A DNA stretch of 60,640 bases from an uncultured SAR86 cluster bacterium (GTDB lineage: Bacteria > Pseudomonadota > Gammaproteobacteria > Magnimaribacterales > AG-339-G14), in assembly GCA_902624765.1 (NCBI GenBank), contig CACNYO010000003.1, positions 1 to 60,640 on the forward strand. The letters are read 5' to 3'. Under the pieces are notes generated by a model. It had not been told where the DNA came from, made no database searches, and saw nothing but the letters and a program-made list of their open reading frames with translations. The stretch's first letter is position 1, and each line of letters begins with the position of its first letter. Made by a program: the position numbers and the translations under genes. Of the stretch, positions 21,347 to 60,640 are shown piece by piece.

Positions 21347-21814
21347 ATGAATACTTCCAAAAAAAGTAACTTGCGACCAACAATTGAAAATCGACAAGCA
21401 AGATTTAATTATGAGCTTTTAGATGATTTTGAAGCAGGAATTTCTTTGGAAGGCTGGGAGGTAAAAAGCATCAGAAATGGGCAGATAGAATTAAAAAATG
21501 CTTACGTTGTTTTAAAAAAAGGAGAAGCTTGGATTATTGGATTGAAGATTCTTCCTATGAAAGAGATCACTTACGAAGTTTCATCAGAGAGATCTAGAAA
21601 GCTTTTACTTACGAAAGCAGAGTTATCTAAGCTTTTCAAACAAACAAATGAAAAAGGATTGAGTTGTGTTCCCATAAAAATTTTTTGGAAAAATAATTTA
21701 GTTAAAGTAAAAATTTCTGTGGCTCGAGGTAAATCAAAATATGATAAGAGACACTCGATGAAAAATAAGGAGTGGAGAAAGGAAAAATCTTCGTTAGAAA
21801 ATTTTTCTAACTGA
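21347..21814 (+). CDS. smpB: SsrA-binding protein
   Basis: NRQARFNY, EAGISLEGWEVKSIR, RKLLL and GKSKYDKR; adjacent to tmRNA. Confidence 0.96.
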   Translation: MNTSKKSNLRPTIENRQARFNYELLDDFEAGISLEGWEVKSIRNGQIELKNAYVVLKKGEAWIIGLKILPMKEITYEVSSERSRKLLLTKAELSKLFKQTNEKGLSCVPIKIFWKNNLVKVKISVARGKSKYDKRHSMKNKEWRKEKSSLENFSN

Positions 21815-21844: not shown

Positions 21845-22193
21845 GGGGGCGAACAGGATTAGACATCTTTCTTTCGAACCTTAAGTGCATGTCGAGATTG
21901 AGACGTTCTCGTTAAACAATTCTCAAAAAAATTAGTTGGCAAAAACAACTACGCACTAGCTGCATAATTAAGCTAGCTTCCTTACCCTGACTTCTACTAA
22001 GGGATAAGCGAAGTCGACTAGTAGAATGCTTGAAATGTGTTGTTCAGACGCATTTTGATAAGACTTTTCTGAGCTTACTCTTCTAATCCCTTTTCATCGG
22101 GCCATGGAAGTAAAAGAAAATTGATGAAATAAGCATGTAGATCTGAAGGTAAGAGTAAGTTGGACGCGGGTTCGATACCCGCCGCCTCCACCA
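21845..22193 (+). ncRNA. ssrA: tmRNA; tag reading frame 21938-21967 encodes GKNNYALAA*
   Basis: 5' GGGGGCG pairs with 3' CGCCTCC-ACCA, including the G3:U70 Ala determinant. T-arm GCGGG-TTCGATA-CCCGC. Internal frame ends YALAA-TAA after the resume context TTAGTT. Confidence 0.96.
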
Positions 22194-44806: not shown

Positions 44807-45130
44807 TTATTTACTTAACTCATCTAATGAGATTTGAACGTCAACCCCAGCGGAAAGATCTAGCTTCATTAAAGCATCGACAGTTTTTTCAGTGGGCTTG
44901 ATGATATCCATCACTCTTTTATAGGTTCTAATTTCATATTGATCTCTTGCATCTTTATCCTTGTGAGGCGAGATTAATATAGTAGTGCGACTTTTTTTGA
45001 CAGGCATTGGTATTGGTCCTTTAACAACCGCGCCAGTTCTTTTAACAGTATCAACAATTTCTCTTGCCGATTTATCAATTAATTTATTGTCAAAAGCTTT
45101 GAGCCGAATTCTAATATTCTGGTCTTGCAA
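44807..45130 (-). CDS. rpsJ: 30S ribosomal protein uS10
   Basis: [13 protein letters not shown] and SPHKDKDAR; TTG start at 45130, 5 nt after GGAGG. Confidence 0.97.
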
Positions 45131-45216
45131 ACCAACCTCCAAAAGTAATAAATATCTGTTAAAGAACTAATCGATTTATCCGTAAATCAATTCATCCATC
45201 TCACGGACGAGCGGCA

Positions 45217-45245
45217 ATTCTATTGGGACATCGATGCGATGTCAA
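45217..45245 (-). promoter_or_regulatory. Sigma70 promoter of the S10(-spc-alpha) operon
   Basis: TTGACA (45245-45240), 17 nt spacer, TAGAAT (45222-45217), followed by the GC-rich discriminator TGCCGC. Confidence 0.85.
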
Positions 45246-45253
45246 CAAGCGTA

Positions 45254-47371
45254 TTAGCTTTTATTTATGATGGATTCTGCAACGTTATTGGGGACTTCAG
45301 CGTACTTTAGAGGCTCCATAGTAAACGTTGCTCTACCTTGGGTTGCAGATCTTAAATCAGTTGCATATCCAAACATTTCAGCAAGGGGAACTTCTCCATT
45401 GAGAGCCTTACCAGATGGTATATCATTCATTCCCTGGACAATTCCTCTTCTTCTATTTAAGTCTCCAACGACATCTCCCATGTATTCTTCTGGAGTCACA
45501 ACTTCTAGCTTCATAATCGGTTCAAGTAAAACCGGCTTAGCTCTCATAGCTCCATCTTTTAAAGCCTGTGAAGCAGCAACTTTAAAAGCTATCTCACTTG
45601 AATCTACATCATGGAAAGAACCATCATAGAGCGTTACTTTTACATCGATTAAAGGATAGCCAGCAATTACACCAGCTTCCATTTGTTCTTTGACACCCTT
45701 GTCTACAGCTGGGATGAATTCTCTTGGAATGGTTCCACCAACTATAGAATTAACAAATTCATAGATATCTTTATCTTCTTCTTCCGTCTCTTCGTGAACT
45801 AAGGGTTCAATTTTTATCCAAACGTGTCCGTATTGACCTTTACCGCCCGATTGTCTTACAAACTTTCCTTCAGATTCAACCATTTGTCTGATAGTTTCTC
45901 TATAGGCTACCTGAGGCTTACCAATATTAGCTTCGACATCAAACTCTCGTTTCATTCTGTCAACAATCACGTCTAAGTGAAGCTCCCCCATACCGGATAT
46001 TATTGTTTGACCTGATTCTTCATCACTATTCACTCTAAAAGATGGATCCTCTTGAGCAAGCCTTCCTAACGCGGTAGACATTTTTTCCTGGTCTGTTTTA
46101 GTTTTTGGTTCAACGGCAACTGAAATCACTGGCTCTGGGAATGTCATCTTTTCCAAGATGATAGCCTTATCTCTATCGCAAAGAGTTTCTCCTGTGCTGA
46201 CGTCTTTCAGACCTATGACTGCACATATATCACCTGCCCTTACTTCAGATATTTCTGTTCTGTTGTTAGCGTGCATCTGCAACATCCTACCGATTCTTTC
46301 TTTGGATCTTCGAGATGGTGAATAAACAGAATCTCCAGATGATAAAACACCTGAATAAACTCTTATAAAGGTTAAGGTACCTACAAATGGATCTGTAGCA
46401 ATCTTGAAAGCAAGAGCTGAGAATGGCTCCTCGTCGCTAGAAGATCTCTGATCTTCAGTTTCTTCGTCTTCCAAAACACCTTTTATAGCTTCAACCTCAT
46501 CAGGAGATGGCAGATAATTGATTACCGCGTCTAGTACACATTGAACTCCTTTGTTTTTAAATGCTGAACCACATAGACATAAAACTATTTCATTAGATAA
46601 GGTTCTTTGTCTAAGTCCTGCTATGATTTCATCTTCTGTAAGATCTCCATTTTCGAGGTACTTATCCATTAAATCTTCCGACGCCTCAGCGGCAGATTCA
46701 AGCATCTGCTCTCTGTAATCTTCACATTCAGCTAACATTGATTCAGGGATATCTTCTTCTCTATAGGATTTACCCATATCATCGAGATCAAAATAAAGAG
46801 CTTTCATAGAAATTAAATCAACCATTCCTTCAAAGTCATCTTCAGCACCTATTGGAAGGTTGATAGGAACTGGTGAGGCACCTAATCTATCTTTCATTTG
46901 TTGAACAACATTAAGAAAGTTTGCTCCGGCTCTATCCATTTTGTTAATGAAAGCAATTCTAGGAACCTTGTAACGATTTGCTTGTCTCCAAACTGTTTCG
47001 GACTGGGGTTCAACTCCTGAGCTGCCGCAGAAAACAACAACTGCTCCATCCAATACTCTCAATGATCTTTCAACTTCAATAGTAAAATCTACGTGGCCAG
47101 GTGTATCAATAATATTAACTCGGTGTTCATCAAATTGTTGTTTCATCCCCTTCCAGAAACAAGTTGTAGCAGCTGAAGTTATCGTAATACCTCTTTCTTG
47201 CTCCTGCTCCATCCAATCCATTGTTGCAGCACCATCATGGACTTCTCCAATTTTGTGAGAAATACCTGTGTAATATAGAACCCTTTCTGTAGTTGTTGTT
47301 TTTCCGGCATCTACGTGGGCGCAAATACCGATGTTTCTATATAGTTTAAGTGGAACTTTTCTGCCGCTCAT
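45254..47371 (-). CDS. fusA: Elongation factor G
   Basis: [22 protein letters not shown] and NKMDR; 705 aa. Confidence 0.99.
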
Positions 47372-52448: not shown

Positions 52449-55400
52449 TCAAACCTCCTCGAAATCAATATCAATCGCTAAAGATCGAATTTCTTTTGTT
52501 AAAACATTATAGGATTCTGGTATTCCAGCTTCCATTTCATAAGAACCATCGACTATATTTTTATAGATTTTTGTTCTTCCGTAGACATCATCAGACTTAA
52601 CAGTGAGCATTTCTTGAAGAGTATGAGAAGCACCATAAGCTTCAAGAGCCCAAACTTCCATCTCTCCGAGTCTTTGTCCACCGAATTGTGCTTTTCCTCC
52701 AAGCGGTTGCTGAGTAACTAAGCTGTAAGACCCTGTGGAACGAGCATGCATTTTATCTTCGATAAGATGATTAAGCTTGAGCATATACATGTACCCAACA
52801 GTGACCGAGCGATCAAATTTATCCCCTGTTCTTCCATCATAAAGAGTAGTTTGTCCAGTTTCAGGAAGGTTGGCTAACTTCAACATCTCTTTAATTTCTG
52901 CCTCTTTAGCTCCATCGAAAACTGGGGTTGCCATAGGAACACCGTTTCTAAGATTGTGGCAAAGCTCTAAGAATTCACTATCATTTAGAGAACTAATATC
53001 TTGATTCATCCCTGATTTAACATAAATTTTATCTATGAATGATCTTAGGGCTTTTAAATCCTTATAATTTTCGAGCATCTTAGATATTTCATCTCCAAGA
53101 CCTTTTGCAGCTGATCCAAGATGAACTTCAAGAAGTTGTCCAACGTTCATTCTTGATGGCACTCCTAATGGATTCAATACTAAATCAACTGGCTCGCCAT
53201 TTTCATCATATGGCATATCTTCGACAGGCATAATTACAGATATGACTCCTTTGTTACCATGCCTACCCGCTAATTTATCGCCTGGTTGGATTCTCCTTTT
53301 AATCGCAAGATAAACTTTAATTACTTGTTGCACTCCTGGAGGTAAATCATCTCCGGAAACAATTTTTTTCTTCTTAGCTTCAAATCTATTTTTGAGCATT
53401 TTTTCATATGCTTTCAAATTATCTTTGGAATCTTTTAACTGATCATTAATATCTTCGCTTTGCATTCTCAATTTGAACCACTCATCGGAAGCAAGGTTAT
53501 CTAGAAACTCTTTAGATATTGTTTCCCCTTTGGATATGCCTCTTCCAGATATCACTTTTTGACCTGTCAAAACAGACCTTAAAGAGTTAATGGTCGCATT
53601 TGTAACGATCTCCAGCTCTTCATCAAGATCTTTTTGAATTTCTGCTAAAGAGACAGATTCAATAACAGAAGCTCTTGGATTTTTTTCTAATCCCTCTCTT
53701 GTATAAATTTGAACATCAATTACTGTACCATCGGCACCGCTTGGGACTCTTAGAGAGGTATCTTTTACATCTGCTGCTTTTTCTCCGAAAATTGCTCTAA
53801 GAAGTTTCTCTTCAGGTGAAAGTTGAGTTTCCCCTTTTGGTGTAACTTTTCCAACTAAAATATCTCCCGCCTTAACTTGTGCTCCAATGTGAACAACTCC
53901 ACACTCATCAAGTTTCCCTAATGCGGACTCTCCTACATTGGGAATGTCAGCTGTGATTTCATCTGGTCCTAATTTTGTATCTCTAGCTGTACAAGTAAGT
54001 TCTTGTATGTGAATACTTGTAAGCTTATCTTCTTTTACAAGTTTGTCAGAAATAAGAATTGAGTCCTCAAAGTTGTATCCGTGCCAAGGCATAAAAGCAA
54101 TTTTGATATTTTGACCAAGTGCTAGCTCTCCTAAATCAATTGAAGAGCCATCAGCCAAGATATCGCCTTTAGCAACTTTATCTCCAACTTTAACTATTGG
54201 TTTTTGATTCATGCATGTATTTTGATTAGACCTTGTGTACTTAGTGAGGTTGTATATATCTACAGCTGAGTTAGTTGAAGAGATTTCTTTCATATCTTTT
54301 CTGACCACTATTCTTCCAGAATCAACCTTTTCAACAGTCCCTTTGTTTTCTGCGATTACACAATCTCCTGAATCTTTGGCAATCAATCTTTCCATTCCAG
54401 TTCCAACAAGAGGAGCCTCTGTCTTCAAGGTAGGAACTGCCTGTCTCATCATGTTAGAGCCCATTAAAGCCCTGTTAGCATCGTCATGCTCTAGGAAAGG
54501 TATTAGTGATGCAGCAATAGATACTACCTGCTGCGGAGATACATCCATTAGCTCAACTCTATCTGCTGACATAAGTTCAAATTCATTTTTAAATCGAACA
54601 GGAACGAGTTCGTCTACAAATTTATTATTTTTATCAAGCAGCGCACTTGCTTGTGCAATAACAAATTCGCCTTCTTCTATTGCAGAAATATACTTAATGT
54701 CTTCAGTCACTTTGCCATTAATTACTTGTCTATATGGCGTCTCAATAAATCCAAAATCATTGACCTTGGCAAAAACAGATAAAGAATTTATTAGACCAAT
54801 ATTGGGTCCTTCTGGGGTTTCTATTGGACAAACTCTTCCGTAATGACTTGGGTGAACGTCCCTAACCTCAAAGCCAGCTCTTTCTCTTGTTAAACCCCCT
54901 GGACCAAGTGCTGAAACTCTTCTTTTGTGAGTAATTGCTGCAAGTGGATTATTCTGATCCATGAATTGTGACAGTTGACTTGAACCAAAAAATTCATTTA
55001 TTGCAGCAGTTACAGGCTTTGCGTTGATTAAATCTGCTGGCCCAAAGCCCTCAGCTTCAGCTACATTCAATCTTTCTCTGACAGCTCTTTCCACTCTTAG
55101 AAGACCAACTCTAACTTGGTTCGATACCATTTCGCCAACTGATCTTATTCGTCTGTTTCCTAAATGATCTATATCGTCACAATCTTGCTTTCCATTTCTT
55201 ATATCAACAAGAGTTTTTGTCACATCAATGATGTCTTCCTTACTTAATATTCCAGGCCCTTGAAGGTCTTCCCTTCCAAGACGACGGTTGAATTTCATTC
55301 TTCCAACATCAGAAAGATCGTACTTCTCTGAATTAAAAAATAAATTTTCAAAAAGATTTGTTGCTGCTTCTTTAGTTGGAGGCTCTCCAGGTCTCATCAT

Positions 55401-58784: not shown

Positions 58785-59318
58785 TTATGCTCTCTCAATT
58801 TGATTGAAATCTAATTCGACCGGAGTTGATCTTCCAAAGATCATCACCGCTACTTTTACTTTTCCTTTTTCTGAATCGACTTCTTCAATCACACCACTAA
58901 AATCATTAAAAGGTCCATCAATAACTCTAATCATTTCACCGGCTTCATAAATATTTTGTTGCGAAGTGGTTTCAACTCCAGATTCTATTTGGTTTAAGAT
59001 TCTGTTTGCTTCGTTTTCTGAAATTGGTCTTGGATTGGTTTTAGTGCCTCCAATGAAACCCAAAACCCTTGGAGTCTCTTTGACAAGGTGCCACGTATCG
59101 TCATTCATTTCCATCTCAACCAAAATGTAACCTGGGAAAAATTTCTTTTGTATAGTTTTTTCCTTTCCTCCTTTCATTTCAGTTATTTCTTCGGAAGGTA
59201 CTTCTATCTTTCCAAAGAAATCCTCCATGCCGTTGAGAGTTATTCTTTCTAAAAGCTGTTCCTTGGCCTTATTTTCGTAACCAGAATAAGAATTAAGAAC
59301 ATACCAAGATTTCGACAT
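58785..59318 (-). CDS. nusG: Transcription elongation factor NusG
   Basis: WYVLNSYSGYE, FPGYILV, KOW motif DGPFNDF and IFGRSTPVEL; start moved to ATG 59318. Confidence 0.97.
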   Translation of the reverse strand: MSKSWYVLNSYSGYENKAKEQLLERITLNGMEDFFGKIEVPSEEITEMKGGKEKTIQKKFFPGYILVEMEMNDDTWHLVKETPRVLGFIGGTKTNPRPISENEANRILNQIESGVETTSQQNIYEAGEMIRVIDGPFNDFSGVIEEVDSEKGKVKVAVMIFGRSTPVELDFNQIERA

Positions 59319-59320
59319 TT

Positions 59321-59668
59321 CTACCCCAATAATAAATTTAACCCGAAGGAGAAAAGAGAATCCAAGCCCCATAACAACAGAGAAGCAGCAATTACTGCAG
59401 CTAAAACAATAAGAGTTGTTTGAGTCGTCTCAGTTCTATTAGGCCAGACTACTTTTCTAATTTCAGTTAGTGAAGTAACAATTAAGTTGTATGCGGAATT
59501 ACCGAAAATTGTAAATCTAATTATTGCTAAACCCAGAATCAATAGAGCAATCACAATCAAGGTTCTGTATAAGAGAGCAACTTCAGAGTAATAAGAATTC
59601 CCCCAGACAGCAATCAGGATAACTGCTGAGCCAAGGATCCATAAAATTTTACTGCTAACTGAAGTCAT
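59321..59668 (-). CDS. secE: Preprotein translocase SecE (three-TM type)
   Basis: EIRKVVWP signature; upstream of nusG. Confidence 0.95.
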   Translation of the reverse strand: MTSVSSKILWILGSAVILIAVWGNSYYSEVALLYRTLIVIALLILGLAIIRFTIFGNSAYNLIVTSLTEIRKVVWPNRTETTQTTLIVLAAVIAASLLLWGLDSLFSFGLNLLLG

Positions 59669-59694
59669 ATTGTTTTATCTTATATCCATCTCCG

Positions 59695-59770
59695 TGGCAG
59701 GCCAGGAGGGAATCGAACCCCCAACCTGCGGTTTTGGAGACCGCCGCTCTACCAATTGAGCTACTGGCCT
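59695..59770 (-). tRNA. trpT: tRNA-Trp (CCA), 76 nt, with encoded 3' CCA
   Basis: Cloverleaf: acceptor AGGCCAG/CTGGCCT, D arm GCTC/GAGC, anticodon arm GCGGT-CTCCAAA-ACCGC, T arm GGGGG-TTCGATT-CCCTC, discriminator G73 then CCA. Confidence 0.98.
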
Positions 59771-60640
59771 ATTGAACGATTTTGGATACTACTCCGGAAC
59801 CAACAGTTCTGCCACCTTCTCTAATAGCAAAACGCATTCCTTCTTCCATAGCGATGGGTGATATCAACTCAACATTGATCGCGACATCATCACCTGGCAT
59901 GACCATCTCGACTCCATCAGGAAGAATGACTTCACCAGTCACATCGGTTGTCCTTACATAAAACTGTGGTCTGTAGCCTTTGAAGAAAGGTGTATGTCTA
60001 CCACCTTCTTCTTTGTTTAATACATAGACTTGTGCTTCAAACTTAGTATGAGGAGTTATTGAACCAGGCTTAGACAGTACCTGACCTCTTTCAACTTCTT
60101 CTCTTTTTGTACCTCTTAGAAGAACACCAACATTTTCACCTGCACGACCTTCATCAAGAAGTTTTCTGAACATCTCTACACCAGTGCAAGTAGTTTTTTC
60201 CGTATCCTTAATTCCAACAATTTCCATTTCATCATTGACAGAAACCATACCTCTTTCAATTCTTCCAGTAACAACAGTTCCTCTTCCTTGAATTGAAAAG
60301 ATATCTTCAATAGGCATCAAGAAAGGCTTGTCTAGATCTCTAACTGGCTCAGGAATATGACTGTCCAATGACTCAACCAATTTAAGAATGGCTTCTTTTC
60401 CGTGTTCACCTTCATCGCCTTCTAGAGCCTTTAAAGCAGATCCAATGGTGATGGGAGTATCATCTCCAGGGAAATCGTACTCATTTAAAAGATCTCTGAT
60501 TTCTACTTCTACTAACTCAATTAACTCAGCATCATCTACCTGATCAGCTTTGTTTAAAAAGACTACGATATGCTCAACACCTACCTGTCTCGCTAATAAG
60601 ATGTGCTCTCTAGTTTGAGGCATAGGTCCATCTGCGGCAT
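59769..60640 (-). CDS. tuf: Elongation factor Tu, C-terminal part (5' end outside the window)
   Basis: [27 protein letters not shown] and [11 protein letters not shown]; tufB-type position before tRNA-Trp-secE-nusG. Confidence 0.99.

Follow-up and report, generated by a model that had tools for sequence, protein, structure and literature searches.

The window analysed here is a 60,640-nt stretch of DNA (contig CACNYO010000003.1) from an uncultured SAR86 cluster bacterium, and its last kilobase carries, on the minus strand, the elongation factor Tu (EF-Tu) gene tuf followed by the gene for tRNA-Trp. The listed open reading frame (ORF) of tuf (59769..60638, minus strand) is in a tufB-type position and comprises the 3′ 870 nt of the gene, being open at the 5′ end, where it is cut by the window edge. 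The Pfam domains GTP_EFTU, D2, and D3 of EF-Tu were all matched, and domain 3 reaches residue 287 of 289. The tRNA-Trp gene (59695..59770, minus strand; anticodon CCA; 76 nt) was identified by ARAGORN and Rfam. The tuf stop codon is a TAG at 59771-59769 of the same strand; its T falls at position -1 of the tRNA, and its A and G form the first two nucleotides of the tRNA, so that the two genes overlap by 2 nt (59770-59769). Across the junction, the minus-strand sequence is ...GGA GTA GTA TCC AAA ATC GTT CAA TAG GCCAGTAGCTCAATTGG... or, in a shorter view, ...TCC AAA ATC GTT CAA TAG GCCAGTAGC....

This arrangement, with the stop codon at 59771-59769, the tRNA beginning at 59770, and two bases shared, had been claimed in an earlier note on this DNA and was borne out by ARAGORN, Rfam, and the ORF list. 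The note had also proposed ARAGORN as a check on the tRNA boundaries; the program returned 59695..59770, 76 nt, and a G73-CCA end, as claimed. The predicted cloverleaf has a 7-bp acceptor stem running from A1-T72 to G7-C66, followed by G73 and an encoded CCA. Rfam model RF00005 aligned in full (positions 1-71 of 71) to 59698..59770, with a score of 72.6 bits where the gathering score is 29. The 5′ end of the tRNA is identical in these two independent methods, and tRNA-Trp genes start with AGG and end with TGCCA in 72 of 72 plus-strand copies from the related loci that were fetched. The 5′ boundary is therefore firm, and a misplaced tRNA end was rejected as an explanation for the overlap.

An extension of the EF-Tu C-terminus into the tRNA was rejected as well. 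The protein has the usual length, ending in ...KIVQ in the window and in ...KIIE in the closest relative, described below, at the same end point as in other relatives. Since the C-terminus is not lengthened, the overlap arose by complete loss of the spacer between the genes. Nor is TAG an unusual stop codon here, as 12 of the 67 ORFs in the window end with it.

Conservation of the overlap in related genomes

Species-representative genomes were scanned with the NusG protein of the window, and the 80 loci compared here are the best of 538 confirmed matches. The tuf stop codon was positioned by tblastn with the C-terminus of the window EF-Tu, and the start of tRNA-Trp by ARAGORN. The spacing was scored in 57 of the 80 loci; the other 23 were without a tuf C-terminus and/or tRNA-Trp, mostly at contig ends, and were excluded from the counts. 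Only one of these loci belongs to a close relative, with a NusG 80% identical to that of the window, while all others reach 62% at most. This locus (L001) comes from a metagenome-assembled genome (MAG), Gammaproteobacteria bacterium MED-G141.

The MED-G141 locus presents the identical TAG-G overlap. Its tuf gene ends in ...ATT ATC GAG TAG, with the stop codon at 2531-2533, and the tRNA begins at the A of that codon (2532). The two EF-Tu sequences share 239 of 289 amino acids and 640 of 867 nucleotides (74% nucleotide identity). The last three sense codons differ, being ATC GTT CAA in the window and ATT ATC GAG in the relative, and the tRNA-Trp genes are identical in 76 of 76 nt. As the MED-G141 genome bears the same junction behind different final codons, an error of assembly does not account for the overlap. 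The earlier note had named an assembly indel as an outcome that would overturn its claim, and such an indel, or one from base calling, was rejected on this ground: the same junction is present in an independently assembled, different organism.

In the remaining 56 of the 57 scored loci, tuf and tRNA-Trp are separated by a spacer of 13-161 nt (median of all 57 loci, 75 nt). In the survey of tuf-tRNA-Trp spacing, as proposed in the earlier note, the MED-G141 locus has no spacer either, and the other 56 relatives have one. The shortest spacers, of 13, 14, and 19 nt, belong to Hahella sp. NBU794, a Hahellaceae MAG, and a betaproteobacterial MAG (L007, L022, and L071, respectively), and with these three the window stands at the end of a continuum. 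These short spacers have no terminator-like match in our strict script, and they look like intermediates between the usual spacer of about 75 nt and the overlap, resembling the secG-leuU junction of Escherichia coli discussed below. The tuf stop codon is TAA in 41 of the 57 loci, and U is the commonest base at tRNA position -1 (30 of 57). On this comparison, the overlap is one that has been tolerated over long divergence, or one that arose twice.

Three further loci (L057, L062 from Oceanobacter, and L066) have about 2.5-3 kb upstream of nusG in which no tuf C-terminus was found. Two of them (L057 and L062) retain tRNA-Trp, so the linkage of tuf and tRNA-Trp has been broken in some relatives.

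Transcription signals and RNA folding at the junction

The geometry of the junction restricts how tuf can be transcribed. A translatable tuf mRNA needs the TAG and therefore carries the first two nucleotides of the tRNA; and, as there is no space between the stop codon and the tRNA (-2 nt), a terminator is only possible within the tRNA or past it. A consensus scan found no terminator-like site common to the window and the MED-G141 locus, and none in the 26-nt spacer between tRNA-Trp and secE (59669..59694, minus strand). In the same kind of scan, the coding strand showed no sigma-70-like site over the approximately 460 nt (window) or 900 nt (MED-G141) upstream of tRNA-Trp. In the relative, secE follows tRNA-Trp after 21 nt, and both pre-secE spacers, of 26 and 21 nt, are too short for a sigma-70 promoter of standard layout.

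A promoter hidden in the 3′ part of tuf, from which tRNA-Trp would mainly be made, had been named in the earlier note as a second outcome that would refute it. It was looked for by the consensus scan and by codon conservation, two weak tests, and nothing was found. Among codons for the same residue in the window and the MED-G141 genome, the frequency of identical codons is 0.50 in the last 30 codons and 0.47 overall; hence the end of tuf gives no hint of a conserved element or promoter within it. Of the relatives' 56 spacers, 9 have a promoter-like match and 8 a terminator-like match in the strict script. Matches as few as these do not allow us to claim that the ancestral spacer held both a promoter and a terminator.

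The upstream side of tuf is available in the MED-G141 locus. There, tRNA-Tyr (1021-1104) and tRNA-Thr(ggt) (1225-1300) precede tuf, which starts at 1340, 39 nt after tRNA-Thr; a promoter-like sequence, TTGACA-17-GAGAAT, is present at 979-1007, 14 nt before tRNA-Tyr. The gene is bracketed by tRNA genes, 39 nt before it and -2 nt after it, which leaves no room for a promoter or a terminator at either junction. The tufB-type layout, with tRNA genes and a promoter-like site ahead of tuf, is seen in this relative, and the window ends at 60640 inside tuf. Taking the geometry together with the weak scans, the most economical reading would be that tuf, tRNA-Trp, secE, and nusG are co-transcribed.

The predicted minimum-energy structures of the junction contain the tRNA-Trp cloverleaf in the window and the MED-G141 locus alike. 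They also join U(-1) to G73, a pairing that is not special, because G73 is universal and U(-1) is common in the relatives. The coding end of tuf in the window also forms a long imperfect hairpin at about 59840-59796 (minus strand), as part of a fold of -58.9 kcal/mol; part of it was flagged as terminator-like by the scan, with only 3 G-C pairs. Compared with shuffled sequences, the window fold, which includes the tRNA cloverleaf, has z = -2.70, while that of the MED-G141 locus has z = -0.57 and is no better than shuffled. A protective 3′ hairpin in the end of tuf was rejected, since it is absent from the relative and the z-score of the window is due to a fold with the cloverleaf in it; the hairpin at 59840-59796 is taken as a chance structure.

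Processing of the tuf/tRNA-Trp transcript

In its 7-bp acceptor stem, A1-U72 pair, encoded G73-CCA end, and U at position -1, the base that RNase P prefers there, the junction matches a canonical substrate of the bacterial enzyme RNase P. A cut by this enzyme at the mature 5′ end of the tRNA would leave a tuf mRNA ending in ...CAA-U. The anatomy of the junction and this logical consequence, both proposed in the earlier note, hold, with a canonical substrate in place and no space for a terminator; the novelty that the note implied does not, as the concept was already in print in 2014 (PMC4131195).

In that work, Hudson, Lau & Williams asked how many mRNAs become non-stop through the maturation of overlapping tRNAs or transfer-messenger RNAs (tmRNAs), together t(m)RNAs. 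Across 2031 bacterial genome projects, with 115,660 valid t(m)RNA genes in all, the authors counted 379 overlaps in the same orientation; the coding sequence (CDS) is upstream in 250 of them, which corresponds to about 1 in 15,000 mRNAs (PMC4131195). The CDS/t(m)RNA overlaps stem from few evolutionary events; in 44 Helicobacter genomes, for instance, a CDS of the FtsW/RodA family overlaps tRNA-Ile-CAT, and in Carsonella smpB overlaps ssrA. Such CDS/tRNA overlaps were proposed as high-frequency sources of non-stop mRNA (PMC4131195). The tuf/tRNA-Trp junction belongs with this class: a Pfam-positive CDS lies upstream on the same strand and runs into a tRNA that is valid by two methods, maturation should strip its stop codon, and the arrangement is rare and found in few lineages. 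It differs in the gene, which is tuf; in the host, a streamlined marine gammaproteobacterium of free-living type; and in the extent of the overlap, which is minimal, comprising 2 nt of the stop codon. EF-Tu-family CDSs are named in the survey text only for cases that span tRNA-Sec (PMC4131195). Our literature search found no paper on a tuf/tRNA-Trp overlap, although such a case may be among the 250 of the survey.

The analogue known in most detail is the secG-leuU junction of E. coli, in which, according to Mohanty & Kushner, a single RNase P cut makes the 5′ end of leuU and frees the secG mRNA with a 14-nt tail (PMC2241853). The co-transcript and the freed secG mRNA are reported to have half-lives below 30 s, with PNPase and poly(A) polymerase I as the main factors that the decay relies on (PMC2241853). 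Both systems have an mRNA directly upstream of a tRNA, and in the window no terminator space lies between the two, which suggests co-transcription. They differ in that the 14-nt spacer of E. coli keeps the secG stop codon, whereas with a spacer of -2 the cut would remove the A and G of the TAG; and the steps at secG-leuU were shown by experiment, while those at the junction described here are predicted.

A second comparison is with the tRNA punctuation of animal mitochondria, where mRNAs are bounded by tRNAs and freed by their excision, and incomplete T or TA stop codons are completed by polyadenylation. The end of the tuf mRNA after the cut would likewise be a U that added A residues could complete to UAA. 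The differences are that the DNA of the window encodes a full TAG, usable before cleavage; that RNase P would be a ribonucleoprotein here; and that bacterial polyadenylation destabilises mRNA. In the literature search for tRNA punctuation in bacteria, the matches listed were all mitochondrial.

From these elements we favour, at a probability of about 0.55, that the overlap is a by-product of genome streamlining tolerated in this lineage, and that maturation of tRNA-Trp doubles as inactivation of the tuf mRNA. Other Gammaproteobacteria have a spacer between tuf and tRNA-Trp, which here would have been wholly deleted, giving the 2-nt overlap. The loss is in character for this genome, which is so compact that the 55 adjacent same-strand ORF pairs of the window have a median gap of 2 nt, with 19 of the 55 overlapping. 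A single RNA spanning tuf, tRNA-Trp, secE, and nusG would be made from a tufB-type operon promoter upstream of tRNA-Tyr and tRNA-Thr, the promoter-like site being seen in the MED-G141 locus only. EF-Tu would be translated from transcripts with the tRNA still attached, on which termination at the intact UAG is normal. A ribosome on or close to this stop codon would cover the 5′ strand of the acceptor stem, as the geometry of the ribosome footprint implies, and would delay the folding of the tRNA and the cut.

Once the cloverleaf forms, RNase P would cut between U(-1) and A(+1), producing tRNA-Trp's mature 5′ end and a tuf mRNA ending in ...CAA-U. This mRNA, with neither a stop codon nor a protective 3′ hairpin, would be rapidly degraded by 3′ exonucleases, and ribosomes left on it would be cleared by tmRNA-SmpB. 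Both components are encoded in the window: smpB at 21347..21814 of the plus strand (Pfam SmpB, 1.4e-50), 30 nt upstream of the tmRNA gene at 21845..22193 of the same strand (ARAGORN; Rfam RF00023, 166.7 bits), whose tag frame reads GKNNYALAA. Maturation of tRNA-Trp would then be the terminal, inactivating step in the life of the tuf mRNA, as in secG-leuU but with the cut placed within the stop codon.

Several points weigh against this reading. Co-transcription, the RNase P cut at this site, the decay, and the tagging are steps that we infer. The consensus behind the promoter scans is of E. coli type, the sites counted are about as many as chance would give (3, with 4.6 expected, and 5, with 5.2 expected), and a non-consensus promoter may lie inside tuf; synonymous sites were compared between just two sequences. 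Among the 57 scored loci, a single relative has the overlap as well, and its persistence in two lineages would indicate tolerance, not function, and could be convergent. The cost is a further difficulty. Were cleavage as fast as at secG-leuU, most of the ribosomes translating a given tuf mRNA would reach an end that has no stop codon; to tag so much EF-Tu seems too costly to last, and some unseen protection or untagged rescue may be needed. This cost keeps alive the explanations based on an internal promoter, on A-tailing, and on untagged release.

The internal promoter would make the overlap silent: tRNA-Trp, secE, and nusG would be transcribed mainly from within the 3′ part of tuf, read-through from tuf would be minor or poorly processed, and most EF-Tu would come from mRNA with an intact UAG. 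We consider this unlikely, on evidence that points both ways. In the ancestral gammaproteobacterial cluster, tRNA-Trp is counted in the secE operon, next to tufB (PMC6735719); the promoter-like matches in 9 of 56 spacers of relatives count in its favour, and the promoters of an AT-rich genome can evade a consensus scan. The coding strand before the tRNA is, on the other hand, free of promoter-like sites over the distances scanned, synonymous conservation is not raised in the last 30 codons of tuf, and, even with an internal promoter, tuf transcripts could not stop before the tRNA and would still bear a full canonical RNase P substrate. That the overlap is itself an artefact of assembly or base calling is hardly credible. 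The source is apparently uncultured, tuf regions are often assembly breaks, and many related contigs end in or near tuf; against this stand the identical junction in an independent assembly whose tuf has 74% nucleotide identity, the normal length of the EF-Tu C-terminus, and a tRNA that is intact and identical in both genomes.

Two other explanations accept the cut and spare the cell its cost, and both seem to us quite doubtful. Under the first, a bacterial form of tRNA punctuation, poly(A) polymerase or PNPase would add A to the CAA-U end, restoring UAA and keeping the mRNA translatable. The cut leaves exactly the U to which two A residues would give UAA; the RNase P-made secG mRNA of E. coli is handled in a manner dependent on poly(A) polymerase I (PMC2241853); and the MED-G141 tuf has tRNA genes on both sides, at 39 and -2 nt. 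Bacterial poly(A) tails, however, favour decay, as the half-life of the cleaved secG mRNA, below 30 s, illustrates (PMC2241853); the DNA encodes the full stop codon, unlike the T or TA stops of mitochondria; no poly(A) polymerase was found among the 44 ORFs of this 60-kb window scanned with Pfam; and our literature search returned nothing on incomplete bacterial stop codons completed by polyadenylation. Under the second, ArfA/RF2 or ArfB would act besides tmRNA and release the stalled ribosomes, yielding full-length, untagged, functional EF-Tu (...KIVQ) at low cost. A cut one base past the last sense codon means that hydrolytic release would give the whole protein, ArfA and ArfB have been described as back-up systems (PMC4131195), and the long persistence of the overlap argues for a low cost; but neither arfA nor arfB was found among the 44 window ORFs scanned with Pfam, and tmRNA-SmpB, which is present, is regarded as the primary rescue pathway (PMC3985003).

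In a more far-reaching version, which we hold to be improbable, the main and possibly only EF-Tu mRNA would be tRNA-punctuated and lose its stop codon each time a tRNA-Trp matures, and yet be used efficiently, through A-tailing to UAA or release independent of a stop codon; or else ribosome traffic on the stop codon would gate RNase P and couple the output of tuf, tRNA-Trp, secE, and nusG to the rate of translation. If true, the A-tailing or untagged-release version would be a free-living bacterial counterpart of the incomplete stop codons of mitochondria.

Gene cluster context and significance

The overlap lies at one end of a long cluster. On the minus strand, between 60640 and 32165, tuf, tRNA-Trp, secE, nusG, rplKAJL, rpoBC, rpsL-rpsG-fusA, and the S10, spc, and alpha operons follow each other uninterrupted, on a single strand and with no foreign insertions; some of these genes were confirmed with Pfam, and others were named by size and order. 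Brandis, Cao & Hughes (2019) describe this gene order for the ancestral gammaproteobacterial supercluster (PMC6735719), and it is also found in Pseudomonas (PMC8765398). The elements of the tufB-secE junction described there, tRNAs-tufB, tRNA-Trp-secE-nusG, and rplKAJL-rpoBC-str-S10-spc-alpha, are contiguous in the window (32165-60640). The same work reports that adjoining operons can be physically interlocked (PMC6735719). The interlock in Salmonella is a terminator-promoter overlap in an intergenic region from which the tRNA has been lost (PMC6735719), whereas here it is a stop codon that overlaps a tRNA, and there is no intergenic region.

Next to tRNA-Trp, secE (59321..59668, minus strand) encodes a protein of 115 amino acids (Pfam SecE, 8.3e-17). 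It is followed by nusG (58785..59318, minus strand), which encodes 177 amino acids when read from an internal ATG at 59318 (Pfam NusG and KOW). The listed nusG ORF extends to 59372 and overruns secE by 52 nt (59319-59372); the true start is probably the internal ATG, as in the MED-G141 genome. The listed rpoC ORF, with a TTG start, similarly overruns rpoB by 26 nt (52449-52474, minus strand). The junctions between operons are short, of 21 nt for rplL-rpoB, 51 nt for rpoC-rpsL, and 111 nt for fusA-rpsJ, and therefore offer scant space for the usual terminators, promoters, and attenuators. In a scan of the whole window at Rfam gathering thresholds, only tmRNA and tRNA were matched; no ribosomal-protein leader family (e.g., of the L10, S10, spc, or alpha operons) was found, though the operons are present. 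The absence of tufA after fusA, another claim of the earlier note, was confirmed: the next gene after fusA (45254-47371, minus strand) is rpsJ, 111 nt downstream, and tufA does not lie between them (44807-47371); the str operon consequently ends with fusA. Downstream of the tmRNA gene, on the opposite strand, lies a gene for a protein of the prolyl oligopeptidase family, not RNase R.

On the sequences compared, the overlap of tuf and tRNA-Trp is real and conserved in the window and in the MED-G141 genome, and it is of a rare, already described kind, with consequences that are predicted. Two things set it apart: tuf is the gene concerned, and a streamlined lineage of free-living type has retained the overlap. 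Few bacterial proteins are as abundant as EF-Tu, the factor that brings alanyl-tmRNA to ribosomes that have stalled. For annotation, the case calls for caution, as this is a genuine tRNA/CDS overlap that should not be "corrected". If maturation of the tRNA regularly strips the tuf mRNA of its stop codon, this lineage would be a natural test of how large a load of non-stop translation is affordable; it would also test whether ribosome traffic shields an embedded tRNA from RNase P, and whether messages are salvaged in bacteria by A-tailing or by release independent of a stop codon.

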